In this document: piece by piece, positions 56 to 14,789 of the stretch
Layout: each line of letters begins with the position of its first letter
Position numbering within the stretch: the first letter of the stretch is position 1
Program-made: the position numbers and the translations under genes
The notes under the pieces: generated by a model
The model's input: the letters and a program-made list of their open reading frames with translations, nothing else
What the model was told of the DNA's origin: nothing
Database searches by the model: none
From: a virus
Length of the DNA: 14,789 nucleotides
Direction: 5' to 3' (one strand)
Virus genome (UHGV): UHGV-1727221

Positions 56-553
56 GTAGATAAAGGTATCAAAGCCGAACTGTTTGAATCCATGCTTGGT
101 GGATTAAAAGAGCTCTTTGTTGAACACAACGTTGTTGTTCCAGAAGAATCAGTTGATGTTGTAGCTGAAATGGAAGAAGAGCTGCAAGAACATAAAGAAG
201 AATCAGCTCGTCTGTTCGAAGAACTCAATATGCGCGACGCATATATCAATTATGTGCAGCGTGAAGTGGCATTGAGCGAAAGTACTAAAGATCTGACTGA
301 GTCTCAAAAAGAAAAAGTCTCTGCTCTGGTCGAAGGTATGGATTATTCAGATGCATTCTCAAGTAAATTGAGTGCAATCGTAGAAATGGTGAAGAAGTCT
401 AATAAAGATGAAAGCACTATTACTGAGGGTATAAATACTCCTGATACTGAAGCAGCCGGACTAAATTTCGTCACTGAAGCTGTAGAAGATAAAGCTGCAC
501 AGGGTGCAGAAGATATTGTAAGTGTATATGCGAAAGTCGCATCTCGTTTCTAA
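56..553 (+). CDS. 22: Prohead core scaffold protein gp22, C-terminal fragment (5' end truncated by the adapter junction)
   Basis: Open frame continuous from the adapter junction to TAA at 551-553; acidic, low-complexity protein ending ...SVYAKVASRF, directly upstream of gene 23 as in T4. The true N-terminus is absent. Confidence 0.8.
   Translation, partial: VDKGIKAELFESMLGGLKELFVEHNVVVPEESVDVVAEMEEELQEHKEESARLFEELNMRDAYINYVQREVALSESTKDLTESQKEKVSALVEGMDYSDAFSSKLSAIVEMVKKSNKDESTITEGINTPDTEAAGLNFVTEAVEDKAAQGAEDIVSVYAKVASRF
430..437 (+). promoter_or_regulatory. T4-type late promoter box TATAAATA inside the 3' end of gene 22, candidate late promoter for gene 23
   Basis: Exact TATAAATA at 430-437, about 135 nt upstream of the gene 23 ATG (572). 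T4 late promoters (gp55/gp33-dependent) have this -10-like consensus. Confidence 0.45.
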
Positions 554-571
554 TTTTAAAGGTTAACACAA

Positions 572-2137
572 ATGACTATCAAAACTAAAGCTGAACTTTT
601 GAACAAATGGAAGCCATTACTGGAAGGTGAAGGTTTACCGGAAATTGCTAATAGCAAACAAGCGATTATCGCTAAAATCTTTGAAAACCAGGAAAAAGAT
701 TTCCAGACAGCTCCAGAATACAAAGACGAAAAAATTGCTCAGGCATTTGGTTCTTTCTTAACAGAAGCTGAAATCGGTGGTGACCACGGTTACAATGCTA
801 CTAACATCGCTGCAGGTCAGACTTCTGGCGCAGTAACTCAGATTGGCCCAGCTGTTATGGGTATGGTACGTCGTGCTATTCCTAACCTGATTGCTTTCGA
901 TATTTGTGGTGTTCAGCCAATGAACAACCCGACTGGCCAGGTATTCGCACTGCGCGCAGTATATGGTAAAGACCCGGTCGCTTCCGGTGCTAAAGAAGCA
1001 TTCCACCCAATGTATGGTCCAGATGCAATGTTCTCTGGTCAGGGTGCTGCTAAGAAATTCCCAGCTCTGGCTGCTAATACCACTACAGTCGTAGGTGACA
1101 TTTATTCTCACTTCTTCCAGGAAACTGGTACCGTATATCTGCAAGCTTCTGCTGTCGTAACACTTGATTCTAGCGCGACTGATGCTGCTAAATTAGATGC
1201 CGAAGTTAAAAAACAAATGGAAGCTGGTGCACTGGTAGAAATCGCTGAAGGTATGGCTACTTCTATCGCTGAACTTCAGGAAGGTTTCAACGGTTCTACC
1301 GATAACCCATGGAATGAAATGGGCTTCCGTATCGATAAACAAGTTATCGAAGCTAAATCTCGTCAGCTGAAAGCTGCTTACTCTATCGAATTAGCACAAG
1401 ACCTCCGCGCTGTTCACGGTATGGATGCTGATGCTGAACTGTCTGGTATTCTGGCTACAGAAATTATGCTGGAAATCAACCGCGAAGTTGTTGATTGGAT
1501 TAACTACTCAGCTCAGGTTGGTAAATCTGGTATGACCCTGACTCCGGGTTCTAAAGCTGGTGTATTTGACTTCCAGGACCCAATCGATATTCGTGGTGCT
1601 CGCTGGGCAGGTGAATCCTTTAAAGCTCTGTTGTTCCAGATTGACAAAGAAGCAGTTGAAATTGCTCGTCAGACTGGTCGTGGTGAAGGTAACTTCATTA
1701 TCGCTTCCCGTAACGTAGTTAACGTTCTGGCTTCAGTTGATACCGGCATTTCTTATGCTGCACAGGGTCTGGCTACCGGCTTCAACACTGATACTACCAA
1801 GTCAGTATTTGCTGGTGTTCTGGGTGGTAAATACCGTGTATATATCGACCAGTATGCTAAACAGGATTATTTCACTGTAGGTTATAAAGGTCCGAACGAA
1901 ATGGATGCTGGTATTTACTATGCTCCATATGTAGCTCTGACTCCGCTGCGTGGTTCCGATCCGAAGAACTTCCAACCGGTAATGGGATTCAAAACTCGTT
2001 ACGGTATCGGTATCAACCCATTTGCAGAATCCGCTGCTCAGGCTCCGGCTTCTCGCATCCAGAGCGGTATGCCTTCTATTCTGAATAGCCTTGGTAAAAA
2101 CGCTTACTTCCGCCGTGTATATGTTAAAGGTATCTAA
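572..2137 (+). CDS. 23: Major capsid protein gp23 (precursor)
   Basis: 521-aa ORF beginning MTIKTKAELLNKWKPLLEGEGLPEIANSKQAIIAKIFENQ and ending RRVYVKGI, near-identical to T4 gp23 as I recall it (also 521 aa); AAGG Shine-Dalgarno upstream. Confidence 0.97.
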   Translation: MTIKTKAELLNKWKPLLEGEGLPEIANSKQAIIAKIFENQEKDFQTAPEYKDEKIAQAFGSFLTEAEIGGDHGYNATNIAAGQTSGAVTQIGPAVMGMVRRAIPNLIAFDICGVQPMNNPTGQVFALRAVYGKDPVASGAKEAFHPMYGPDAMFSGQGAAKKFPALAANTTTVVGDIYSHFFQETGTVYLQASAVVTLDSSATDAAKLDAEVKKQMEAGALVEIAEGMATSIAELQEGFNGSTDNPWNEMGFRIDKQVIEAKSRQLKAAYSIELAQDLRAVHGMDADAELSGILATEIMLEINREVVDWINYSAQVGKSGMTLTPGSKAGVFDFQDPIDIRGARWAGESFKALLFQIDKEAVEIARQTGRGEGNFIIASRNVVNVLASVDTGISYAAQGLATGFNTDTTKSVFAGVLGGKYRVYIDQYAKQDYFTVGYKGPNEMDAGIYYAPYVALTPLRGSDPKNFQPVMGFKTRYGIGINPFAESAAQAPASRIQSGMPSILNSLGKNAYFRRVYVKGI

Positions 2138-2150
2138 TCTTTGACGATTT

Positions 2151-2182
2151 AAGGGACCTTCGGGTCCCTTTAGTTGTTTTTA
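2151..2182 (+). terminator. Intrinsic terminator-like hairpin after gene 23 (stem aagggacc / ggtccctt, UUCG tetraloop, then T-rich tract)
   Basis: Perfect 8-bp inverted repeat 2151-2158 / 2163-2170 around loop ttcg, followed by tagttgttttta. Confidence 0.55.
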
Positions 2183-2185
2183 TGG

Positions 2186-2193
2186 TATAAATA
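2186..2193 (+). promoter_or_regulatory. T4-type late promoter TATAAATA for gene 24
   Basis: Exact TATAAATA at 2186-2193, 27 nt upstream of the gene 24 ATG (2221), with AGGAA Shine-Dalgarno between. Confidence 0.55.
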
Positions 2194-2220
2194 AATCATA
2201 TAAACCAAAAGGAAAGCGCA

Positions 2221-3504
2221 ATGGCTAAAATCAACGAACTTCTGCGCGAATCAACCACAACGAATAGCAACTCAATCGGTCGCCCAAATCTCGTTGCTTT
2301 GACTCGCGCTACCACTAAATTAATATATTCTGACATTGTAGCAACGCAAAGAACTAATCAACCTGTTGCTGCTTTTTATGGTATCAAATACCTTAACCCA
2401 GACAATGAATTTACATTTAAAACTGGTGCTACTTACGCTGGCGAAGCCGGATATGTAGACCGAGAACAAATCACAGAATTAACAGAAGAGTCTAAATTAA
2501 CTCTCAATAAAGGCGATTTATTTAAATATAATAATATCGTTTATAAAGTATTAGAAGATACTCCATTTGCTGATATTGAAGAAAGCGACTTAGAGTTAGC
2601 TCTTCAGATTGCAATTGTTCTTTTAAAGGTTCGTCTATTTTCTGACGCAGCGTCAACAAGCAAATTTGAAAGCTCTGATAGCGAAATTGCGGATGCTAGA
2701 TTCCAGATTAATAAATGGCAAACCGCGGTTAAATCTCGTAAACTTAAAACTGGTATCACAGTTGAATTAGCGCAAGATTTAGAAGCAAATGGATTCGATG
2801 CTCCTAATTTCTTGGAAGATTTGCTTGCAACTGAAATGGCAGATGAAATCAATAAAGACATTCTGCAGTCTTTGATTACAGTGTCAAAACGCTATAAAGT
2901 TACAGGAATTACTGATAGCGGATTCATCGATTTGAGTTATGCATCTGCTCCTGAAGCTGGTCGTTCATTATATCGAATGGTATGTGAAATGGTTTCGCAT
3001 ATCCAAAAAGAATCAACTTATACAGCAACGTTTTGTGTTGCTTCAGCTCGTGCCGCTGCGATTCTTGCTGCATCAGGTTGGTTAAAACATAAACCAGAAG
3101 ATGACAAATATCTTTCACAAAATGCCTACGGGTTCTTAGCTAATGGTTTACCGCTTTATTGCGATACTAACAGCCCATTAGATTATGTAATCGTTGGTGT
3201 AGTAGAAAATATCGGTGAAAAAGAAATTGTTGGATCCATTTTCTATGCTCCGTATACAGAAGGTCTTGACTTAGATGACCCTGAACATGTGGGTGCATTT
3301 AAAGTTGTAGTCGATCCAGAAAGCTTGCAACCATCTATCGGTTTATTAGTTAGATATGCTTTATCAGCAAATCCTTATACCGTAGCAAAAGATGAAAAAG
3401 AAGCAAGAATAATTGACGGTGGAGACATGGATAAAATGGCGGGTCGTTCAGATTTGTCTGTTTTATTAGGTGTTAAATTACCAAAAATTATTATTGATGA
3501 ATAA
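2221..3504 (+). CDS. 24: Capsid vertex protein gp24 (paralog of gp23)
   Basis: 427-aa ORF (T4 gp24 is 427 aa as recalled), N-terminus MAKINELLRESTTTNS; internal similarity to gp23 (VELAQDL...LATEM..EIN versus IELAQDL...LATEI..EIN). Confidence 0.95.
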   Translation: MAKINELLRESTTTNSNSIGRPNLVALTRATTKLIYSDIVATQRTNQPVAAFYGIKYLNPDNEFTFKTGATYAGEAGYVDREQITELTEESKLTLNKGDLFKYNNIVYKVLEDTPFADIEESDLELALQIAIVLLKVRLFSDAASTSKFESSDSEIADARFQINKWQTAVKSRKLKTGITVELAQDLEANGFDAPNFLEDLLATEMADEINKDILQSLITVSKRYKVTGITDSGFIDLSYASAPEAGRSLYRMVCEMVSHIQKESTYTATFCVASARAAAILAASGWLKHKPEDDKYLSQNAYGFLANGLPLYCDTNSPLDYVIVGVVENIGEKEIVGSIFYAPYTEGLDLDDPEHVGAFKVVVDPESLQPSIGLLVRYALSANPYTVAKDEKEARIIDGGDMDKMAGRSDLSVLLGVKLPKIIIDE

Positions 3505-3507
3505 AAC

Positions 3508-3534
3508 AAAGGGACCGAAAGGTCCCTTTTTATT
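3508..3534. terminator. Bidirectional terminator-like hairpin between convergent genes 24 and rnlB (stem aaagggacc / ggtcccttt, GAAA tetraloop)
   Basis: Inverted repeat 3508-3516 / 3521-3529 with loop gaaa, flanked by A/T runs on both sides; lies between the gene 24 stop (3502-3504) and the rnlB stop (3534-3536, minus). Confidence 0.5.
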
Positions 3535-4538
3535 TAGCTCAACAACTCAATCCAAGCTGGACGAAGTACATCTTGTACCATTTTAACTAATTCCTTTTTA
3601 ATCAAAGAAGGATTATCTGCTTGAGTTAGAGTAATACCTTCACGAGAAGTTTCTTCCAAAATATCTTGGACAGTTAGACCCATCACCTTTCCAAAATCCT
3701 TTGGACCAATTTCACCAATTTTAGAAATAACGTTATTTACCCGGTTCAGTGTAACGTAACAAGCTAAAATTCCCACCAATTTGTTATCAGCTTCTGATAG
3801 CTCAACTTTAGCTTTAATAGGCTTATCAGACTTTTTCTTTTCACTAAATTTGGAATTCTTGCATTTAATTGCTACACGATTTCCATTATGAAGCCAAGAA
3901 GGATAACAAGGTTTCAATACATATCCTTCAGCAGTAAATACTTCGCCTTTTGCTTCGGCATTCCAAACGCATTTATTTGCATCAACTAATCCAGCATGGT
4001 CTACTGTAAAATTATAATCTTGGACGACAGAATCTAAATCATTTGGCAATTTAATAAGTTCTTCAAATTTACCGCGACCTAAAAGTGGAGCAATTTTAAA
4101 TTTAAATGTATTACAGAATGATTCCATCATATAATCGTCGACATAAGTCACATCACCACTTTCTGTAGTGACAATAATGTCAAATACATAAAAATCTTTA
4201 TCGCCATAATCGACATTCTTCTGAATGCCAGGTCCAGCGAATTCGCCAAAGACTTGATAAGATACAACCGCTGAGGTTTCCATAATATCTTGTACTGCTT
4301 TAATGGAATCAGCGTAATTCTTTAGAATAATTTCATACCCAAAGAAATCTTCAGCGGGAAGAATCGGTCCAGTACGCTTAGCGCAAGTTACTTTATCACG
4401 CTCAATAATCAATGAGAAATTTGTGCCGTGAATCTTTTCACGAGCTACCCACTCCCCACCAGTCAATCCCAAGCTATAAAGTTTTTCAATAAATTTAGAG
4501 TTGTAATGATTTTCAAGACTGCTATACTTTTTAAACAT
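3534..4538 (-). CDS. rnlB: RNA ligase 2 (Rnl2; ATP-dependent nick-sealing RNA ligase)
   Basis: 334-aa ORF matching T4 Rnl2 in length and sequence as recalled; covalent nucleotidyltransferase motif I KIHGTN (Lys35), motif IV-like EGYVLK and motif V-like AIKCKN are present. Confidence 0.95.
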
Positions 4539-4547
4539 AATTAATCC

Positions 4548-4826
4548 TCAAAATGTAATTTCTAACCAATCACCATCACGCTGATCACTATTGACTTTAA
4601 AGCTAAATCCTTCTTTTCTCAGCCAATCACCAATTTCTTCAGTAATCAATTTATCACGAGCAATACAATAATAACTAAAATGCGTTTTACCTTGTTCAGC
4701 TGCTTTATTAGCAAGTTCCGAAAAATCTTTAATAAAGCACTCTAGTTTAAACTGTTTACTTTTGAATGCTTTTTCGCGTAATTGATTAGCAAAAGATTCA
4801 TTTTCATAAAGATCATACTGTTCCAT
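4548..4826 (-). CDS. 24.2: Small hypothetical protein (T4 24.2 position)
   Basis: 92-aa ORF immediately downstream of rnlB on the same strand, 10-nt gap; the name is assigned from position in the T4 gene order, not from a recognised motif. Confidence 0.55.
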   Translation of the reverse strand: MEQYDLYENESFANQLREKAFKSKQFKLECFIKDFSELANKAAEQGKTHFSYYCIARDKLITEEIGDWLRKEGFSFKVNSDQRDGDWLEITF

Positions 4827-5028
4827 TTTTCACCTTTTTATTGATATGTCTTTTTCTATAGACAACTTTTTCTCGAGTTTCAAATTTATTCTTAGCAGTC
4901 ATAGCTCGAGCCCATAATACAGCCACTTCTTTTGCCTGTAAGTTCAATTCACGAGCAATTTCAATGAATGACTTTCCAGACTCATGAAGAGTAAACACCA
5001 CAACCTCAGTTCTCATAATCAATCTCAT
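4813..5028 (-). CDS. 24.3: Small hypothetical protein with a probable helix-turn-helix (T4 24.3 position)
   Basis: 71-aa ORF overlapping the 24.2 start by 14 nt; contains an HTH-like segment SGKSFIEIARELNLQAKEVAVLWARA and a basic C-terminus. Confidence 0.5.
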   Translation of the reverse strand: MRLIMRTEVVVFTLHESGKSFIEIARELNLQAKEVAVLWARAMTAKNKFETREKVVYRKRHINKKVKNGTV

Positions 5029-5095
5029 GTTATCGAGTTGGTGCCATTATATACATCATTTTCTGATTGTGTTTTGTGTGCTTTCAAAATGAAGA

Positions 5096-5113
5096 AAGGG
5101 GCCGAAGCCCCTT
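5096..5113 (-). terminator. Hairpin 4 nt downstream of the hoc stop (stem aaggggc / gcccctt; the loop reads UUCG on the minus-strand transcript)
   Basis: Inverted repeat 5096-5102 / 5107-5113 around a 4-nt loop; sits between hoc (stop 5118-5120) and the 24.3 start. Confidence 0.45.
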
Positions 5114-5117
5114 ATGA

Positions 5118-6533
5118 TTATGGATAGGTATAGATGATACCAGTTTCTAAAGCAGTTTTGTGAATGATGTATCCATTACGTGATTCTTGGACATCAACTT
5201 CTGGATAGTCTTTCATCATCTTCTGAAGAGTGTAACGATGCAAGTAATACTTACTACCCGGATCGTCAATTTTCCAATCTTTACCTTCTTCAGTCATTTT
5301 TTGGATTTCATCCATAACCCACCAACCGCACCAGATGTAAGCTGAAGTACGATGTGGAAGAGGATGAACATAAGGTAGTTCACCTTCTGGTTCAATTGGA
5401 GTCCGTTCAGCAATAACAACTTCAGCTGTTGAACTAATTGTCTTTGAAGTGTAATTATCTTTAGTTAATACTGCTTCAACTTTAATTGTATGAGTACCCG
5501 CTGAGGAGGTATCAATACTATAAGTATTAGTAGAATTACTTTCTGCTACGTTGTCTTTCTTCCAAGAGTACACAATATTAGTATCACCAGGAGCACCAGT
5601 AACAGATGCTGTTAAAGTTGCAGTTCCACCAACAGTAGTATTAACTGATGGCGGAGATAAAGAAATGGTGGCACTATTAAATGTCGCATTATTAGTTACT
5701 ACTGTTGCTTCTGCTGAAATTTCTTTTGTAACATAATTTGTTGCAGAAACAGATGCGGTGCATTTAAGAGTTTTACTTCCGACTTCGGTCGGAGTGAATT
5801 TATACGTAGCAGAAGTTGCATCCGGAATATTACTGTCATCCATTGACCATTGGAATGTTATAGTAGCACCTGAAGGTGCACTAGAGACATTTGCAGTTAA
5901 AGTAATAGGAACACCAAAGACTGTAGTCGGAGACTCGGGTGTAATTTTTAGCGTCGAAGAATTAGCCTTTTTATTTACAGTCAAAGAAACCGCTGATGAT
6001 TCTACTGTTTTATCAACGTAATCAGTTGCAGTCACTGTGACAGAGCAAGTTATAGACTTAGTTCCTTCAGTTGTTGGTGTATATTCAAAGGTTGATTGCT
6101 TTTGACCGTCAACAGCGACCCCGTCAACTTTCCATGTATAATCAATAGCAGCACCAGTAGGTTGATTGCTTACATTAGCAGTGAATGTTGTTGCTGTTCC
6201 AATTTCTACTGCTGCAGGAGAAGCCGGAGTAACAGTGATAGTGGAATTATTTTCTTTCTTATTAACAGTGATAGTTGTTGATGCTTCAGCTATTTCCGGA
6301 TCTCCTGCGGAAAGTGTATTAGTTGCAACCACTTTAATTTTTTTTGTTCCTGCTGGAGAAGCAAGAGTATAATCCATTGTAGCAGCCGTAGAGCCCTGTG
6401 TTATATCATCTACAGTCCAGACGTATGTAATAGTACCATCTGGAGTTTCACCTGCAGGTGTAGCAGTGAATGTTTGTGAACCTCCAATAACCCCTGTAGG
6501 AGTTAGAGGAGATAACGTGACAGTGAATGCCAT
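5118..6533 (-). CDS. hoc: Highly immunogenic outer capsid protein Hoc, enlarged variant with four tandem Ig-like modules plus a C-terminal capsid-binding domain
   Basis: 471-aa ORF rich in Thr/Ser/Val with four repeats of about 90-95 aa (pattern T(F/L)TA(N/S)V..P.G..I.Y.W..D(D/G/N)...K.I.C.); conserved C-terminus ...YIWCGWWVMDEIQKMTEEGKDWK...IIYTYP; located between 24.3 and inh as in T4. Confidence 0.85.
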   Translation of the reverse strand: MAFTVTLSPLTPTGVIGGSQTFTATPAGETPDGTITYVWTVDDITQGSTAATMDYTLASPAGTKKIKVVATNTLSAGDPEIAEASTTITVNKKENNSTITVTPASPAAVEIGTATTFTANVSNQPTGAAIDYTWKVDGVAVDGQKQSTFEYTPTTEGTKSITCSVTVTATDYVDKTVESSAVSLTVNKKANSSTLKITPESPTTVFGVPITLTANVSSAPSGATITFQWSMDDSNIPDATSATYKFTPTEVGSKTLKCTASVSATNYVTKEISAEATVVTNNATFNSATISLSPPSVNTTVGGTATLTASVTGAPGDTNIVYSWKKDNVAESNSTNTYSIDTSSAGTHTIKVEAVLTKDNYTSKTISSTAEVVIAERTPIEPEGELPYVHPLPHRTSAYIWCGWWVMDEIQKMTEEGKDWKIDDPGSKYYLHRYTLQKMMKDYPEVDVQESRNGYIIHKTALETGIIYTYP

Positions 6534-6542
6534 AAGTTATCC

Positions 6543-7223
6543 TTATTTTAATGTTACGAAAGAAGAGTTGCGTGTTTCACGAATTAAAACTGATCCGTCA
6601 CGGTTAATGTAATAAATTAAGCTAAATAAAGTTTGGTGTGCTGACGCATGTTCAAAACTAGTTGGGTGAGATTTCCAATCAGGAGTTTCAGCAATCCATT
6701 GATAAATCCACCAAGGAACAGTACAGAATCCTGGATTTTTTCCAATCAACTGAAGATTTGGGCTAAAGTTTTCCGGAAGAGTAAATACAGACGGCTTTTC
6801 AGATTCAATAATCTCAGCTACAGCCTGTTCAAATTTTTCTTCAACAAATGGAGTATCTTCAATCAAAACTGAGGTATTTTCAGGAATTTTATCCGTTTCT
6901 ACTACTTCAATTTTAATGTCAGATTTAACCGGAGAATCAATCAAAAGTGCTGCTTCTGGATTGACTTCTTCATCGTCATATTTTAACCCCTCTGCAGCAT
7001 CAGCAGCATCAATTAAGTCTTTAATAGATAACCCATCAGTCTCCGGCATAGGTTCACTAGCGAGCTTCTGGAGGGCTTCTTCAATATCAACAACGATATT
7101 ATCAAAAGATTTATTCTTTTTGACCTTTATACCAAACTGTTCAGCATATTCAGCTAATTTAGCTTTAGCTTCTTTGTTATCATCAAGAGCCTTCAGCTCT
7201 GCAATATAATCTTTATCTATCAT
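6543..7223 (-). CDS. inh: Inhibitor of prohead protease gp21 (Inh)
   Basis: 226-aa ORF (T4 Inh is 226 aa as recalled) directly upstream of hoc on the minus strand, separated by 9 nt; acidic N-terminal half. Confidence 0.8.
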   Translation of the reverse strand: MIDKDYIAELKALDDNKEAKAKLAEYAEQFGIKVKKNKSFDNIVVDIEEALQKLASEPMPETDGLSIKDLIDAADAAEGLKYDDEEVNPEAALLIDSPVKSDIKIEVVETDKIPENTSVLIEDTPFVEEKFEQAVAEIIESEKPSVFTLPENFSPNLQLIGKNPGFCTVPWWIYQWIAETPDWKSHPTSFEHASAHQTLFSLIYYINRDGSVLIRETRNSSFVTLK

Positions 7224-7236
7224 AATATTTCCTCAG

Positions 7237-7244
7237 TATAAATA
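7237..7244 (+). promoter_or_regulatory. T4-type late promoter TATAAATA upstream of uvsW
   Basis: Exact TATAAATA at 7237-7244, 29 nt upstream of the uvsW ATG (7274), in the 50-bp inh-uvsW intergenic region. Confidence 0.5.
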
Positions 7245-7273
7245 TAGATATATTTATTACATGGTATTTAGAC

Positions 7274-8785
7274 ATGACTGACATTAAAGTACATTTTTAT
7301 GATTTTAGTCACGTGAGAATTGATTGTGAAGAAAGTACATTTCATGAACTCCGTGATTTCTTTAGCTTTGAAGCTGATGGGTATCGTTTTAATCCGAAAT
7401 ACAGATATGGCAACTGGGATGGACGAATCCGTCTTTTAGATTATAATCGTCTTCTTCCATTCGGCTTAGTCGGGCAAATTAAAAAGTTCTGTGATAACTT
7501 TGGCTATAAAGCCTGGATTGACCCGCAGATTAACGAAAAAGAAGAATTATCAAGAAAAGATTTTGATGAATGGCTTTCTAAATTAGAAATCTATTCAGGA
7601 AATAAAAGAATTGAACCACACTGGTATCAAAAAGATGCAGTGTTCGAAGGATTAGTTAATCGTCGTAGAATTCTTAATCTTCCAACATCCGCTGGTAAAT
7701 CTTTAATTCAAGCTTTGCTTGCGCGGTATTATTTGGAAAATTATGAAGGTAAAATTCTTATCATTGTTCCAACAACTGCTTTAACAACTCAGATGGCTGA
7801 TGACTTTGTTGACTATCGTTTATTCAGTCATGCAATGATAAAGAAAATCGGTGGTGGAGCATCAAAAGATGATAAATATAAAAATGATGCACCAGTCGTT
7901 GTTGGTACATGGCAAACTGTAGTAAAACAACCGAAAGAGTGGTTCTCCCAATTTGGTATGATGATGAATGATGAATGTCATCTTGCTACAGGAAAAAGTA
8001 TTTCATCTATCATATCAGGTTTAAATAACTGCATGTTCAAATTCGGTTTGTCTGGTTCATTACGTGATGGCAAAGCCAATATCATGCAGTATGTTGGAAT
8101 GTTTGGTGAAATATTTAAGCCAGTAACGACTTCTAAGTTAATGGAAGATGGACAAGTAACTGAGCTAAAAATTAATAGTATTTTTCTTCGCTATCCCGAT
8201 GAGTTCACTACTAAATTAAAGGGAAAAACTTACCAAGAAGAAATAAAAATTATTACTGGGCTTAGTAAAAGAAATAAATGGATCGCTAAATTAGCTATTA
8301 AGCTTGCGCAAAAAGATGAAAACGCTTTTGTCATGTTTAAACATGTATCGCATGGTAAAGCTATTTTCGATTTAATTAAAAATGAATACGATAAAGTTTA
8401 TTACGTATCAGGGGAAGTTGATACCGAAACCCGCAATATAATGAAAACCTTAGCTGAAAACGGTAAAGGAATAATTATAGTAGCTAGTTATGGTGTATTT
8501 TCTACTGGTATTTCAGTTAAAAATCTGCATCACGTTGTTTTAGCGCATGGTGTTAAATCAAAAATCATTGTATTACAAACAATCGGTCGTGTATTACGTA
8601 AGCATGGTTCTAAAACAATCGCAACCGTCTGGGACCTCATAGATGATTGTGGTGTTAAGCCAAAATCTGCTAATACTAAAAAGAAATATGTTCATTTGAA
8701 CTATCTTTTAAAACACGGCATTGATCGTATTCAGCGCTACGCAGATGAAAAATTTAATTACGTAATGAAAACAGTTAATTTATAA
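7274..8785 (+). CDS. uvsW: UvsW DNA/RNA helicase (SF2, recombination-repair; branch migration)
   Basis: 503-aa ORF beginning MTDIKVHFYDFSHVRIDCEE; Walker A LPTSAGKS, motif II DECH, SF2 C-terminal motifs (QTIGRVLR); matches T4 UvsW as recalled. Confidence 0.95.
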   Translation: MTDIKVHFYDFSHVRIDCEESTFHELRDFFSFEADGYRFNPKYRYGNWDGRIRLLDYNRLLPFGLVGQIKKFCDNFGYKAWIDPQINEKEELSRKDFDEWLSKLEIYSGNKRIEPHWYQKDAVFEGLVNRRRILNLPTSAGKSLIQALLARYYLENYEGKILIIVPTTALTTQMADDFVDYRLFSHAMIKKIGGGASKDDKYKNDAPVVVGTWQTVVKQPKEWFSQFGMMMNDECHLATGKSISSIISGLNNCMFKFGLSGSLRDGKANIMQYVGMFGEIFKPVTTSKLMEDGQVTELKINSIFLRYPDEFTTKLKGKTYQEEIKIITGLSKRNKWIAKLAIKLAQKDENAFVMFKHVSHGKAIFDLIKNEYDKVYYVSGEVDTETRNIMKTLAENGKGIIIVASYGVFSTGISVKNLHHVVLAHGVKSKIIVLQTIGRVLRKHGSKTIATVWDLIDDCGVKPKSANTKKKYVHLNYLLKHGIDRIQRYADEKFNYVMKTVNL

Positions 8786-8799
8786 GGGCTTCGGCCCTT
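8784..8799 (+). promoter_or_regulatory. UUCG-tetraloop hairpin overlapping the uvsW stop codon and abutting the uvsW.1 Shine-Dalgarno (possible terminator, RNA-stability or translational control element)
   Basis: Stem aagggc (8784-8789) / gccctt (8794-8799) with loop ttcg; the uvsW stop TAA is 8783-8785; GGAG at 8801-8804 and the uvsW.1 ATG at 8811. Confidence 0.45.
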
Positions 8800-8810
8800 T
8801 GGAGAAAAAG

Positions 8811-9041
8811 ATGTTACTAGAATTTAAACAATTTCTTTATGAAGCTTCTATTGATGAATTTATGGGTAAAATTGCCTCTTGTCAAACATTAGAAGGTTTA
8901 GAAGAACTTGAAGCTTATTATAAGAAAAGAGTCAAAGAAACTGAATTAAAAGATACTGATGACATCTCTGTGAGAGATGCTTTGGCAGGAAAAAGAGCTG
9001 AATTAGAAGATTCAGACGATGAAGTAGAAGAAAGCTTTTAA
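8811..9041 (+). CDS. uvsW.1: UvsW.1 small acidic protein (UvsW-associated)
   Basis: 76-aa ORF from ATG 8811 preceded by GGAG at 6-nt spacing. The ORF track's 80-aa version begins at a TTG at 8799 inside the hairpin; the ATG is preferred. T4 UvsW.1 is 76 aa as recalled. Confidence 0.7.
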   Translation: MLLEFKQFLYEASIDEFMGKIASCQTLEGLEELEAYYKKRVKETELKDTDDISVRDALAGKRAELEDSDDEVEESF

Positions 9042-9050
9042 ATTAAAAAA

Positions 9051-9072
9051 GGCCCAACCAAAAAGGAAGGGC
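9051..9072 (-). terminator. Possible terminator hairpin for the minus-strand uvsY-cluster transcript (stem ggccc / gggcc, 12-nt loop, A/T runs either side)
   Basis: Inverted repeat 9051-9055 / 9068-9072; on the minus strand it is followed by the U-run complementary to aaaaaa at 9045-9050. The large loop makes this less certain. Confidence 0.35.
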
Positions 9073-9114
9073 CAAAACTATAGACTAAAGGTCACACTAT
9101 AGCAAAAGTTGTGT

Positions 9115-9264
9115 TTCATTTAATTGTTCTTCCGAACTTTCTGAAACTGGTAGTTCTTTAATGTAATTATAGCAAGGCCCAGGATGTACAGGACCTTTGT
9201 CTGTTTCAACAACCAATGCAGAATCGATTGGAGTTTTACAGACAACACAAATCTTATCTGACAT
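9115..9264 (-). CDS. uvsY.-2: Small Cys-containing protein, 49 aa (T4 uvsY.-2 position); absent from the supplied ORF track
   Basis: Manual minus-strand translation from ATG (complement of 9262-9264) gives MSDKICVVCKTPIDSALVVETDKGPVHPGPCYNYIKELPVSESSEEQLK then stop (complement of 9115-9117); strong GAGGAG Shine-Dalgarno 6 nt upstream (complement of 9271-9276). Confidence 0.55.
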
Positions 9265-9289
9265 GATTGTCTCCTCTGAATTATATATC

Positions 9290-9297
9290 TATTTATA
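9290..9297 (-). promoter_or_regulatory. Minus-strand late promoter box TATAAATA upstream of uvsY.-2
   Basis: Plus strand reads tatttata at 9290-9297 (TATAAATA on the minus strand), about 26 nt upstream of the uvsY.-2 ATG and overlapping the uvsY.-1 stop codon. Confidence 0.4.
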
Positions 9298-9517
9298 CAA
9301 CTCTCATATGCATATCAATGCCCATATCTTTAGAATAAAAATATTCATCAAGATATCCGGCAAATTTTCCTTTAATATAAAGGACATCTTCACCACACGG
9401 GTGATCGGCCAAGATACGAATATCCTGACGCTTAAGATTATGCTTTTTCATTAAGAATTGAATCTCAGTTTCAAATTCTTCTTCATAATTAAAAGCATCA
9501 TCAATGCTATATCTCAT
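9293..9517 (-). CDS. uvsY.-1: Small hypothetical protein downstream of uvsY (T4 uvsY.-1 position)
   Basis: 74-aa ORF whose ATG overlaps the uvsY stop (TAATG on the minus strand at 9515-9519), implying translational coupling. Confidence 0.65.
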   Translation of the reverse strand: MRYSIDDAFNYEEEFETEIQFLMKKHNLKRQDIRILADHPCGEDVLYIKGKFAGYLDEYFYSKDMGIDMHMRVV

Positions 9518-9930
9518 TATTTTCCAGCCTCAAATGCTCGCATGTCTTGAATATGCTTAATAGCAAATCCGCGTGATTTGATAGCATCAAGAGCTCCGCT
9601 ACAGAAATCTAATAAAATCCCCCAATACTGTAACGAGGTATCAACCTTTAAAACATCCTTATCCGCTGATAGAACTGTCTTCATTTCTGATTTCTCGTAA
9701 CGATCCATACTAAATTCATCACCATCTCCTCGTCCCGAGTAGTAGTCTAATTTAGCTTTAAGAGCAACTTTTTTCTGTGCATCAATTCTAAGCATTTCCT
9801 TTTTAATACTTGAATGCTTATTAAGCCATTTACTATATAACATCACATTATTAGCTGCTTCATACTGTAATTTAGTCGAATCTATAAACACATCTTTCTT
9901 CAATTCTTCTTGAAGATCTTCTAATTTCAT
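9517..9930 (-). CDS. uvsY: UvsY recombination mediator protein (loads UvsX recombinase onto gp32-coated ssDNA)
   Basis: 137-aa ORF beginning MKLEDLQEELKKDVFIDSTKLQYEAANNVMLYSKWL; length and sequence match T4 UvsY as recalled. Confidence 0.93.
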   Translation of the reverse strand: MKLEDLQEELKKDVFIDSTKLQYEAANNVMLYSKWLNKHSSIKKEMLRIDAQKKVALKAKLDYYSGRGDGDEFSMDRYEKSEMKTVLSADKDVLKVDTSLQYWGILLDFCSGALDAIKSRGFAIKHIQDMRAFEAGK

Positions 9931-9970
9931 ATTGTTCTCTATTCAATTGTTATTGGATGGACTTAGATTC

Positions 9971-9996
9971 ATTATACCACGTTTATACGTGAAGCA
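9971..9996 (-). promoter_or_regulatory. T4 middle-mode (MotA/AsiA-dependent) promoter for uvsY: MotA box TGCTTCA plus sigma70-type -10 TATAAT
   Basis: Minus strand reads ataaTGCTTCAcgtataaacgtggTATAATgaatc: MotA box at plus 9990-9996 immediately after the gene 25 stop, 13-nt spacer, -10 hexamer at plus 9971-9976, about 35-40 nt upstream of the uvsY ATG (9930). Confidence 0.6.
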
Positions 9997-10395
9997 TTAT
10001 ACTCTATTACTGGAAGCCAGTTGCAGTTTTATCTGCTCAATATCATCAGGATTATCGATGACCGAAAAGCGTATTTCTACTATCAGAGTATAATCATCAT
10101 AAACTGGTATCACATTAACTGCTAATTTATCAATACGTGGCTCATAGTTTCTTACTGCGCTTTCGATATTGCGCTCAACTGTGTCAGCAGTAAGAGGAGT
10201 CATATTTTCAAAAAGCTGGTCTGATAAATCACATCCAAATTCAGGGTCAAACGGTCTTGAACCTTTTCTTGTTGTAATAATTCCCAAAAGACTGTTTTTA
10301 ATTGACCTTAATCCAAGCGATCTGGAAACGTCTTTGTTCCAATCCATTTTCATTTCCGGGTCAATATCAGAATAAAGCTTATTAATATTTGCCAT
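9997..10395 (-). CDS. 25: Baseplate wedge protein gp25 (lysozyme-like fold)
   Basis: 132-aa ORF beginning [29 protein letters not shown]; size and sequence match T4 gp25 as recalled; its ATG overlaps the gene 26 stop (TAATG). Confidence 0.93.
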   Translation of the reverse strand: MANINKLYSDIDPEMKMDWNKDVSRSLGLRSIKNSLLGIITTRKGSRPFDPEFGCDLSDQLFENMTPLTADTVERNIESAVRNYEPRIDKLAVNVIPVYDDYTLIVEIRFSVIDNPDDIEQIKLQLASSNRV

Positions 10396-11021
10396 TATAG
10401 TAACTCAAAGAACTCTTTGAGGCCTCTTATTACGTGAGCATGAGTTTTTCCACACTCTGGACACTTAATTGGAACAGCCAAATAAACGGTAGGCTTTAAA
10501 AGCATATCTTTTATAGCTACAATATCTGACTCTGTGATGATAGAATATAAATCTTCCAGTTCTTTTTCATTTAAGTCTTCAACTGGAATGCTTTCCCCGT
10601 TAGCATGAATCGTTTCTATGCATGATACTATCATGTGGGCTATATTTTTATCATCAAAAATTTTAGGGTATCGGAATTTAATTTTAATGTCACCCAGTGT
10701 ATACCAGAGGTCTTCTGGTGCATCTATTTGTGTATGTAATAGATTTATATGGGTTGGTATTTCAGTTCCACAGGTGCACTTCCAGGAGTTTTCGTGATTA
10801 ACTTCACCGAGAGAATGTGCCCATAAATGAATCAACAATAGTTCTGATTCTTGGCGGTTTAAATCTTTTGCATTTGTGCAGTCTTTGATTAGCTTTTTAA
10901 CAATTACTTCTACGGAACCATTATTTTTGGCAGTAATAAGTTCTAGATATTCTTTAAGCGTGAATGCGCGACAATTGATTATTTTAGAACCAACTCTCAC
11001 ATCAAATTTGTATTCATACAT
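10395..11021 (-). CDS. 26: Baseplate hub protein gp26
   Basis: 208-aa ORF (T4 gp26 is 208 aa as recalled); contains two Cys pairs (CTCG ... CPECG) suggestive of a zinc-ribbon; AAGGAG Shine-Dalgarno upstream on the minus strand. Confidence 0.85.
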
Positions 11022-11042
11022 ATTTAGCTCCTTTATTTATCA

Positions 11043-11054
11043 TATTTATAAATA
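11043..11054. promoter_or_regulatory. Palindromic bidirectional late promoter tatttataaata serving divergent genes 26 (minus) and 51 (plus)
   Basis: Plus-strand TATAAATA at 11047-11054 (gene 51 ATG at 11072, AAGGAG at 11061-11066) overlaps a minus-strand TATAAATA (plus tatttata at 11043-11050; gene 26 ATG at 11021). Confidence 0.55.
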
Positions 11055-11071
11055 GAATAAAAGGAGCATCT

Positions 11072-11821
11072 ATGGCAAACATTATTCGTTGTAAATTACC
11101 AGATGGTGTTCATCGTTTTAAACCATTTACGGTAGAAGATTATCGAGATTTTTTGTTAGTTCGAAACGATATAGAACATCGGTCACCACAAGAACAAAAA
11201 GAAATAATTACTGATTTAATTGATGATTATTTTGGAGACTATCCGAAGACTTGGCAACCATTTATATTTTTGCAGGTATTTGTAGGGTCGATAGGTAAAA
11301 CTAAAGTACCGGTCACATTTGTATGTCCAAAATGTAAAAAAGAAAAGACAGTTCCATTTGAAATATATCAAAAAGAATTAAAGGAACCTGTTTTTGATGT
11401 AGCTAATGTTAAAATTAAATTAAAGTTTCCTTCTGAGTTTTATGAAAATAAAGCAAAGATGATTACTGAAAATATTCATTCTGTTCAAGTAGATGAAATA
11501 TGGTATGATTGGAAGGAAATTAGTGAATCAAGCCAAATAGAACTTGTTGATGCCATCGAGATAGAAACATTAGAAAAAATTCTCGATGCAATGAATCCTA
11601 TTAATTTAACTCTACATATGTCATGCTGTAATAAGTACATTAAAAAATACACTGATATAGTAGACGTGTTTAAGCTATTAGTTAATCCAGATGAGATATT
11701 TACTTTTTATCAAATTAATCACACACTCGTAAAAAGTAATTATAGCTTAAATTCAATAATGAAAATGATTCCTGCTGAACGTGGATTCGTATTAAAACTG
11801 ATTGAGAAGGATAAACAATAA
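11072..11821 (+). CDS. 51: Baseplate hub assembly catalyst gp51
   Basis: 249-aa ORF (T4 gp51 is 249 aa as recalled); Cys pairs CPKC ... CC; its stop overlaps the gene 27 ATG (TAATG at 11819-11823). Confidence 0.85.
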
Positions 11822-12993
11822 TGAGTATGTTGCAACGCCCCGGATATCCAAATCTCAGCGTTAAATTATTTGATAGCTACGACGCTTGGAGTAATAATAG
11901 ATTTGTTGAATTAGCTGCTACTATTACTACATTAACTATGCGGGATTCTCTTTATGGCCGAAATGAAGGAATGCTACAGTTTTATGATTCTAAAAACATC
12001 CATACAAAAATGGATGGAAATGAAATAATTCAGATTTCTGTAGCTAATGCAAATGATATTAATAATGTTAAAACACGAATTTATGGATGTAAGCATTTTT
12101 CCGTGTCAGTAGATTCAAAAGGTGATAACATCATTGCTATTGAATTGGGAACTATTCATTCTATAGAAAATCTTAAATTTGGTAGACCATTTTTCCCTGA
12201 TGCTGGTGAATCTATAAAGGAAATGCTTGGCGTCATTTATCAGGATCGCACATTATTAACTCCAGCAATAAATGCTATAAATGCTTATGTTCCTGATATT
12301 CCATGGACTAGCACATTTGAAAACTATTTGTCATATGTCAGAGAAGTTGCTCTAGCTGTAGGAAGCGACAAATTTGTATTTGTGTGGCAAGACATCATGG
12401 GAGTTAACATGATGGACTATGATATGATGATAAATCAAGAACCATATCCAATGATTGTCGGTGAGCCATCTTTAATAGGTCAATTTGTCCAAGAATTAAA
12501 ATATCCATTAGCATATGATTTCGTTTGGTTGACTAAATCGAATCCTCACAAACGTGACCCAATGAAAAATGCTACTATCTATGCTCATTCATTTTTAGAT
12601 TCTTCATTGCCAATGATTACTACAGGAAAGGGTGAAAACTCTATTGTGGTGTCAAGGTCAGGTGCTTATTCTGAAATGACTTATAGGAATGGATATGAAG
12701 AAGCTATTCGTCTTCAAACTATGGCACAATATGACGGCTATGCTAAATGTTCTACTGTCGGTAATTTTAACTTGACTCCTGGTGTTAAAATTATTTTTAA
12801 TGATAGTAAAAACCAATTTAAAACAGAATTTTACGTTGATGAAGTTATCCATGAATTATCCAATAATAATTCAGTAACTCATCTATATATGTTCACTAAT
12901 GCAACGAAACTGGAAACAATAGACCCAGTTAAGGTTAAAAATGAATTTAAATCTGATACTACCACTGAAGAAAGTAGTTCTTCCAATAAGTAA
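11821..12993 (+). CDS. 27: Baseplate hub protein gp27 (forms the central hub with gp5)
   Basis: 390-aa ORF beginning [23 protein letters not shown]; matches T4 gp27 (about 391 aa as recalled). Confidence 0.93.
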
Positions 12994-13474
12994 TAAAGAA
13001 GTTTCTATTCCTAAAATGGGTCTTAAACATTATAACATTTTAAAAGATGTTAAAGGTCCTGATGAAAATTTAAAACTTCTTATTGATTCTATTTGTCCGA
13101 ATTTATCACCGACAGAAGTTGATTTCGTTTCTATTCATTTATTGGAATTTAATGGAAAGATTAAATCTCGTAAAGAAATAGATGGCTATACTTATGACAT
13201 TAATGATGTTTATGTGTGCCAAAGATTAGAATTTCAATACCAAGGAAATACATTTTATTTTAGACCTCCTGGAAAATTTGAACAATTTTTAACAGTGAGC
13301 GATATGTTATCTAAATGCTTGCTTAAGGTCAACGATGAAGTTAAAGAAATTAATTTTCTTGAGATGCCAGCATTCGTTTTAAAATGGGCAAATGATATTT
13401 TTACAACTTTAGCAATTCCTGGCCCTAATGGTCCAATAACTGGAATTGGCAATATTATTGGATTATTTGAATGA
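12941..13474 (+). CDS. 28: Baseplate hub distal subunit gp28
   Basis: 177-aa ORF (T4 gp28 is 177 aa as recalled) starting in the +1 frame 53 nt before the gene 27 stop; AAGG 6 nt upstream of the ATG; its stop overlaps the gene 29 ATG (ATGA at 13471-13474). Confidence 0.8.
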
Positions 13475-14747
13475 AAAAGCCACAAGAAATGCAAACGATG
13501 CGTAGAAAAGTTATTTCAGATAATAAACCAACGCAGGAAGCGGCTAAATCCGCTTCCAACACTTTATCTGGACTTAATGATATATCTACGAAATTGGATG
13601 ATGCTCAAGCTGCTTCTGAATTAATAGCTCAAACTGTCGAAGAAAAATCGAATGAAATAGTTGGAGCAATTGGTAACGTAGAAAGCGCAGTGAGTGATAC
13701 TACTGCCGGTTCTGAGTTAATTGCTGAAACTGTCGAAATTGGCAACAATATTAATAAAGAAATCGGTGAATCGCTAGGAAGCAAATTAGATAAATTAACA
13801 AGTTTACTAGAGCAAAAAATTCAGACAGCTGGAATTCAACAGACTGGAACTAGTTTAGCCACAGTTGAAAGCGCTATTCCTGTTAAAGTCGTTGAGGATG
13901 ATACTGCCGAATCTGTGGGTCCTTTATTACCGGCTCCCGAAGCAGTTAATAATGATCCTGACGCTGATTTTTTCCCTACCCCTCAACCAGTTGAACCCAA
14001 ACAAGAATCGCCAGAAGAAAAACAGAAAAAAGAAGCATTTAACTTAAAATTATCTCAAGCTTTAGATAAATTAACAAAGACTGTTGATTTTGGATTTAAG
14101 AAATCCATTTCAATTAGTGATAAAATATCAAGCATGTTATTTAAGTACACCATCAGTGCTGCTATTGAAGCCGCTAAAATGACTGCAATGATATTGGCTG
14201 TTGTTGTTGGAATAGACCTGTTGATGGTTCATTTTAAATACTGGTCAGATAAATTTTCAAAAGCCTGGGATTTATTTAATACTGACTTTACTAAATTCTC
14301 TAGCGAAACCGGAACTTGGGGTCCTTTATTACAGAGCATCTTTGATTCTATTGATAAAATTAAACAACTTTGGGAAGCGGGAGATTGGGGTGGATTGACA
14401 GCAGCTATCGTAGAAGGACTCGGAAGTGTTCTTTTTAATTTAGGAGAGCTTATTCAATTAGGTATGGCTAAATTATCTGCTGCAATTCTTCGAGTCATTC
14501 CTGGTATGAAGGATACCGCTGATGAAGTAGAAGGAGGAGCATTGGAAAATTTCCAAAATTCTACTGGAGCATCTCTCAATAAAGAAGACCAAGAAAAAGT
14601 TGCAAATTATCAAGATAAACGAATGAATGGAGACCTTGGTCCGATAGCAAAAGGATTAGATAAAATTGCTAATTGGAAAACTCGTGCATCTAATTGGATT
14701 CGTGGTGTTGATAATAAAGAAGCACTAACTACCGACGAAGAGCGTGC
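13471..14747 (+). CDS. 29: Baseplate hub / tail-length determining protein gp29, N-terminal 425 codons (3' end truncated at the adapter junction)
   Basis: Frame open from ATG 13471 ([22 protein letters not shown]...) with no stop up to the adapter junction at 14748; absent from the ORF track because it has no stop in the window. T4 gp29 is about 590 aa as recalled. Confidence 0.85.
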
Positions 14748-14789
14748 CTGTCTCTTATACACATCTGACGCTGCCGACGAAGCTAGAAG
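14748..14789. other. Illumina Nextera read-through adapter (Tn5 mosaic end reverse complement, Read-1 adapter reverse complement, i5 index, first base of P5 reverse complement); not biological sequence
   Basis: 14748-14766 ctgtctcttatacacatct is the mosaic-end reverse complement; 14767-14780 gacgctgccgacga is the Read-1 adapter reverse complement; 14781-14788 agctagaa is an 8-nt index; 14789 g. Confidence 0.9.

Follow-up and report, generated by a model that had tools for sequence, protein, structure and literature searches.

The stretch of DNA analysed here (the window, 14,789 nucleotides of the virus genome UHGV-1727221) contains a genuine phage segment at positions 56–14747, which is bounded on each side by a short synthetic sequence. 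The phage segment, or insert, is 14,692 bases long and represents an internal piece of a Tequatrovirus (T4-like) genome; it begins within gene 22, of which it has the 3′ part, and ends within gene 29, of which it has the 5′ 72%. Between these two genes lie gp23, gp24, rnlB, hoc, inh, uvsW, uvsY, gp25, gp26, gp51, gp27 and gp28, which by the annotation of Escherichia phage Paracelsus include the genes of the major capsid protein and the vertex protein as well as baseplate genes. The genes at the two edges are both incomplete. The first is a homologue of the prohead scaffold gene gp22, of which the 3′ 498 nt are present on the plus strand (56–553) and the 5′ 312 nt are missing. The last is a homologue of gp29, the baseplate hub and tail-length determinator gene, which begins on the plus strand at 13471 and is cut by the right-hand adapter at 14747, leaving the 5′ 1,277 of approximately 1,773 nt (13471–14747).

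The best match to the insert is Escherichia phage Paracelsus (MZ501096), which covers it completely from 8233 to 22924 in one collinear piece with 97.3% identity, and other Tequatrovirus genomes share this gene order from gp22 to gp29. In total 1,077 phage records matched the insert, 587 of them with at least 80% coverage, and nearly all of these belong to Tequatrovirus and its relatives. The internal origin of the insert can be observed directly at its edges. In pairwise alignments across the junctions the identity with Paracelsus begins at window position 56 and ends at 14747, and beyond both junctions Paracelsus runs on with genuine phage sequence that is unlike the ends of the window. The same continuity is seen in ten further assemblies or genomes that encode an identical gp24: in these the gp22 to the left of the insert is full-length (269 amino acids), the baseplate hub genes follow on the right, and gene 29, where it is reached, encodes a full-length product of 590 amino acids. 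In contrast to complete Tequatrovirus genomes, the window has only about 9% of a genome of roughly 167 kb (167,732 bp in Paracelsus), with one gene truncated at each end. There is no terminal repeat in the insert, the longest word common to its first and last 500 bases being 10 bases.

Some close relatives contain additional open reading frames that are absent from the window. These include a 233-amino acid reading frame that splits the major capsid gene region (relatives L107 and L110, 14374–15075), a GIY-YIG (SegE-like) reading frame between uvsW and inh (L108, 8533–9273) and a NUMOD3 reading frame after uvsW (L115, L116 and L123, about 16,300–17,600). Homing endonuclease genes typically differ in presence or absence between T4-like phages, and these extra reading frames are differences of that kind. 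The Hoc homologue, on the minus strand at 5118–6533, encodes 471 amino acids, while the relatives have 472 amino acids in some cases and 376 in others, a difference in length that is consistent with one Ig-like domain having been gained or lost among them.

The first 55 bases of the window are an exact match to the string CGGCATACGAGAT + TCCTCTAC + GTCTCGTGGGCTCGG + AGATGTGTATAAGAGACAG, all read on the plus strand. Positions 1–13 are the 3′ 13 bases (CGGCATACGAGAT) of the P7 flow-cell sequence CAAGCAGAAGACGGCATACGAGAT, which is thus truncated, and positions 14–21 are an i7 index in its adapter form, TCCTCTAC. Positions 22–36 are the Nextera Read-2, or i7-side, transposon adapter segment GTCTCGTGGGCTCGG, and positions 37–55 are the Tn5 mosaic end AGATGTGTATAAGAGACAG, which faces the insert. 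In the published primer table the Nextera XT v2 index N712, whose index read is GTAGAGGA, has the adapter form TCCTCTAC, and the full P7 string appears there in the same form (PMC7589761, Appendix B). The 34 bases of the Read-2 adapter at 22–55 have no mismatches and were matched in 0 of 200 shuffled sequences.

At the right end the corresponding elements lie on the minus strand. The mosaic end, 19 bp long and again facing the insert, occupies 14748–14766, where its reverse complement, CTGTCTCTTATACACATCT, is read on the plus strand. It is followed at 14767–14780 by the Nextera Read-1, or i5-side, transposon adapter segment TCGTCGGCAGCGTC, with the plus strand reading GACGCTGCCGACGA, and at 14781–14788 by the i5 index TTCTAGCT, with the plus strand reading AGCTAGAA. 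The final base, 14789, is a G on the plus strand and a C on the minus strand, and is consistent with the last base of the P5 sequence ending in ATCTACAC. The Read-1 adapter (33 bases, 14748–14780) likewise has no mismatches and was matched in 0 of 200 dinucleotide-preserving shuffles. The index TTCTAGCT is named S515 in the published primer table (PMC7589761, Appendix B), in agreement with the preliminary description of this DNA, which had tentatively given that name and had read the right end as the reverse complements of the mosaic end, the Read-1 adapter and an index. That reading is exact to the base, with one P5 base in addition, and the pairing i7-side adapter which it had placed at the left end is there as well. 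Both were recovered by the adapter search that it had proposed.

The two ends can also be considered as a pair. The mosaic end occurs exactly at two sites in the window, 37–55 on the plus strand and 14748–14766 on the minus strand, which are inverted relative to each other and abut the insert on either side. Allowing up to three mismatches revealed no further copies in the window, so no adapter is buried inside it. The expected number of matches in shuffled sequence was 0.01, and none of 200 shuffles contained two. Directly outside the mosaic ends are the two transposon arms, TCGTCGGCAGCGTC (Read 1) and GTCTCGTGGGCTCGG (Read 2), without mismatches, and on each side an 8-nt catalogue index separates the arm from the flow-cell sequence, TCCTCTAC on the left and TTCTAGCT on the right. 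N712 and S515 presumably belong to one kit, the Nextera XT Index Kit v2 Set C. Of the flow-cell sequences, P7 is represented by its inner 13 bases out of 24 and P5 by a single base out of 29, and all of these match. The GC content is 0.50–0.53 in the adapters and 0.36 in the insert. Compared with the full Illumina Nextera XT dual-index adapters, the mosaic end, both arms, both indices and the adjoining P7 and P5 bases are identical; P5 and P7 are only partial, as expected where the read length or the assembly graph cuts the read-through short, and nothing else material differs. Both ends of the window are therefore synthetic Illumina Nextera adapters. The exact adapter matches and the loss of homology at 55/56 and 14747/14748 bear out the earlier view that the boundaries derive from library preparation and are not phage termini, and that gene 29 is cut at 14747; the boundaries are an artefact of laboratory and assembly and not of biology.

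A look-up of the exact Hoc protein identified a second assembly of the same region, the contig NODE_65_length_20875_cov_6.45408 of ENA entry ERZ652393 (NODE_65 below; L109), which is 20,875 bp long, has a coverage of 6.45 and carries a SPAdes-style name. It aligns to window positions 59–14789 with 99.94% identity. At the right end the two agree in the junction, in the S515 index and in the final base. At the left end NODE_65 has no adapter: it passes window position 56 into the 5′ part of gp22 and then into gp21, gp68, gp67, gp20, gp19 and gp18, so that this assembly is directly observed to read through the left junction. It would be very unlikely for two independent libraries to share the junction, the index and the last base, and we infer from this that the window and NODE_65 are different assemblies of one library or set of reads. 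If they do share reads, then genuine reads cross the left junction, and the adapter found there would mark a branch taken by the assembler and not an end of the DNA. The fact that NODE_65 and the window stop at the same base on the right suggests that the right-hand limit was set by the reads rather than by the assembler.

Within the insert there are ten differences between NODE_65 and the window, at 58, 973/976/977, 10557/10563/10575, 13216 and 13905/13908. Base 58 is just outside the alignment, and three tight clusters (973/976/977, 10557/10563/10575 and 13905/13908) account for most of the remainder, as expected if the assemblers chose between alternative strain variants. A further assembly, L111 (ERZ28651243), carries the NODE_65 alleles at 10557–13216. 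Comparison of these sequences suggests that at least two strain variants of the T4-like phage co-occurred in the underlying samples. A contig from a public run, L114 (Logan SRR4305269_6932), is 100% identical to window positions 5117–7631 (2,515 bp); at window position 7631/7632, inside uvsW, it gives way to a bare 19-bp mosaic end, with which it stops. The same phage is thus represented by a further contig that is capped by adapter sequence. Sample names such as VATT16-1_SAMN05826531 might refer to the Vatanen 2016 DIABIMMUNE infant-gut cohort. Junction-specific scans of JGI metagenome contigs returned no matches for either of the two window junctions.

The reading that best accounts for these observations, with a probability of about 0.93, is that the window is a contig of a T4-like coliphage, assembled de novo from short reads of an N712/S515 Nextera XT library that were untrimmed or incompletely trimmed. 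The mechanism would be one of read-through followed by extension in the assembly graph. Some fragments of the library would have been shorter than the read length. In such a fragment Read 1 would run through the insert into ME-CCGAGCCCACGAGAC-i7-P7, where ME is the mosaic end, while Read 2 would run into ME-GACGCTGCCGACGA-i5(rc)-P5(rc). If left untrimmed, these reads would give the assembly graph a side branch wherever tagmentation had occurred, and at approximately 6x coverage such an adapter branch could persist as the end of the contig if the genomic path was absent or no better supported. The expected outcome is a contig whose ends carry partial adapters directed outward. The left end of the window, when reverse complemented, has exactly the order ME-CCGAGCCCACGAGAC-i7-P7, and the right end has exactly the order ME-GACGCTGCCGACGA-i5(rc)-P5(rc); the left end would thus be a read-through of the Read-1 type, on the minus strand, and the right end one of the Read-2 type, on the plus strand. 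The source data would likewise have been short reads of low coverage, and the provenance, with the probable sequencing platform and assembler, rests on the near-identical ENA contig NODE_65. The length of the left adapter (55 bases) is equal to the default largest k-mer of metaSPAdes, which is 55. We did not adopt the assembler k-mer as an explanation of this length: the right adapter has 42 bases and adapters at the ends of IMG/VR contigs have 33–76, with no peak at 55.

To place the window among similar cases we used viral contigs in IMG/VR, in which 82 stretches carry the N712 adapter and 23 carry the S515 adapter. All but two of these adapters are terminal and face outward, and the terminal ones comprise 33–76 adapter bases. 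Thirteen contigs have an adapter at both ends: eight have i7 at both, one has i5 at both and four have one of each. Nine of the thirteen thus carry adapters of the same type, which means that the two ends arose as independent events, since a molecule with the same adapter arm at both ends cannot be clustered or sequenced as a paired-end library molecule. With same-type pairs being more common than mixed ones, the arrangement in the window of P7 on the left and P5 on the right has no diagnostic value for a single molecule. In some of the adapter-bearing IMG/VR contigs (L050, L069 and L076) the P7 sequence is followed, in the read direction, by poly-A, a pattern familiar from short reads that have passed beyond the end of the library molecule. 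Two IMG/VR contigs have a complete N712 adapter in the interior. In L043 (IMGVR_UViG_3300009136_000256) it lies at 2545–2610 and extends from the mosaic end through P7, with unrelated sequence following directly, and in L076 (IMGVR_UViG_3300009379_000001) it lies at 81–152, after a poly-T run and 70 other bases. These two are probably chimeric joins that were made via adapter read-through.

The preliminary description had left two possibilities side by side, an untrimmed assembled contig or one full dual-indexed library molecule with an insert of 14.7 kb. The former is strengthened by NODE_65, which has the same right adapter end and reads through the left junction, and by the similar contigs in IMG/VR. 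According to the latter the window would be one physical molecule (P7-i7-ME-14.7 kb insert-ME-i5-P5) read from end to end, for example on a long-read platform. The two ends do carry different adapter arms, correctly inverted and with indices that form a valid kit pair, and this would agree with such a molecule, as would an insert that is collinear with reference genomes and contains neither an internal adapter nor a chimera. However, the outer 11 bases of P7 and 28 of the 29 bases of P5 are absent; the low-coverage contig NODE_65 shares the right adapter end and yet passes through the left junction; and the sibling contigs in IMG/VR have same-type adapters more often than mixed ones. In addition, inserts of 14.7 kb are not handled by Illumina clustering and are amplified inefficiently by the Nextera XT PCR. 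We consider a single molecule very unlikely and do not retain that part of the description. The exact architecture that was proposed with it, the reverse complement of P5-i5-ME-insert-ME-i7-P7, holds for the adapter arms and their orientation but not for P5 and P7, which are truncated.

A different idea accepts the adapters as artefacts but takes the positions of the breaks to be informative. The contig could have been broken where glucosyl-hydroxymethylcytosine leaves gaps in tagmentation or amplification, or where strain microdiversity fragments the assembly graph, and if this were true adapter-capped contig ends would systematically mark such regions in T4-like phages. The evidence in its favour consists of the fragmentary recovery of the genome (approximately 9%) and the clustered differences from NODE_65, and a biological meaning of the break positions is very improbable.

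It is less credible still that the adapters mark the physical ends of packaged phage DNA, either as genome termini or as packaging cuts. The attraction of this explanation is that adapter tips survive preferentially in an assembly graph where there is no genomic continuation, and true DNA ends are among such places. Both junctions, however, are located inside conserved structural genes (gp22 and gp29), and of the 587 phage records with at least 80% coverage of the insert those examined continue on both sides, as NODE_65 does on the left. The insert lacks a terminal repeat and makes up only about 9% of a genome of roughly 167 kb, and T4-type phages package by a headful mechanism that generates circularly permuted ends and no fixed termini. 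Assignment of the window ends as cos, pac or direct terminal repeat was rejected on the same basis, both ends being inside genes 22 and 29 of complete relatives and having no repeat. Finally, two perfect 19-bp inverted repeats flanking 14.7 kb might be taken for natural IS50/Tn5 ends of a composite transposon that carries phage genes, but this can be dismissed entirely. The 19-mer is the engineered hyperactive mosaic end, which differs from both natural ends, outside and inside. It is joined without a gap to the primer, index and flow-cell sequences of Illumina, turns up as part of the same adapter in phages as unrelated as those of Bacillus, Vibrio, Listeria, Streptococcus and E. coli, and has no 9-bp target duplication outside it (TGGGCTCGG on the left versus GACGCTGCC on the right). 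The annotated homologues in the insert are T4 structural and recombination genes only, with no transposase among them.

The assembled contig with untrimmed adapters is thus a known kind of contamination artefact and holds no biological novelty. Among GenBank phage records an adapter was found in 30 with the right end of the window as the query and in 43 with the left end, and the phages concerned have unrelated hosts that include E. coli, Bacillus, Vibrio, Listeria, Streptococcus and Acinetobacter, so no phage lineage has the adapter to itself. Among the records listed, roughly half have it at the end of the record or within about 100 bases of it. Examples of a Nextera adapter situated inside a deposited phage genome are MT584805.1 (107531–107585), MK373775.1 (149749–149781), MZ092003.1 (27885–27919), LR535910.1 (240196–240251) and MK327937.1 (110018–110072). 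Several GenBank adapters sit under annotated coding sequences, among them those of a DNA polymerase, a long tail fiber proximal subunit, a recombinase family protein and a baseplate hub protein, and records of this kind may be misassemblies or contain corrupted gene models.

We found no paper dedicated to Nextera adapters at contig ends, the closest analogue being a report of Oxford Nanopore adapter and barcode contamination in GenBank, in which oligonucleotides embedded in assemblies are attributed to incomplete trimming (PMC13182109). The artefact belongs to the same class, synthetic library oligonucleotides in deposited assemblies, and differs in platform and oligonucleotides, which in the window are those of Illumina Nextera, and in the likely route, which for the window would be read-through of short inserts and extension in a de Bruijn graph.

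The adapters have direct consequences for gene models at the edges of the window. A mechanically called open reading frame at 41–553 begins at a GTG inside the mosaic end and is fused to the C-terminal part of gp22. Adapter bases 2–55 encode GIRDSSTSRGLGDVYKRQ in the same frame, and an edge-partial call from base 2 fuses GIRDSSTSRGLGDVYKRQ to the last 165 residues of gp22. On the right the frame of gp29 (13471–14789) enters the adapter, which adds the spurious residues (A)CLLYTSDAADEAR to gp29(1–425). A collection of 15 billion proteins contained no exact copy of any of these three adapter-fused products. Gene callers will yield chimeric products at both truncated genes, and the 97 adapter bases (1–55 and 14748–14789) should be masked before any analysis.

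Contamination of this kind is widespread, with more than 100 contig ends in IMG/VR for N712 and S515 alone and, for the generic adapter, 30–43 phage records in GenBank. In the window, the perfect inverted repeats of 19 bp could be mistaken for the ends of a transposon or for terminal repeats. The relevance of the finding is one of data hygiene only: neither end of the window should be interpreted as a phage terminus, a packaging site or an inverted terminal repeat.
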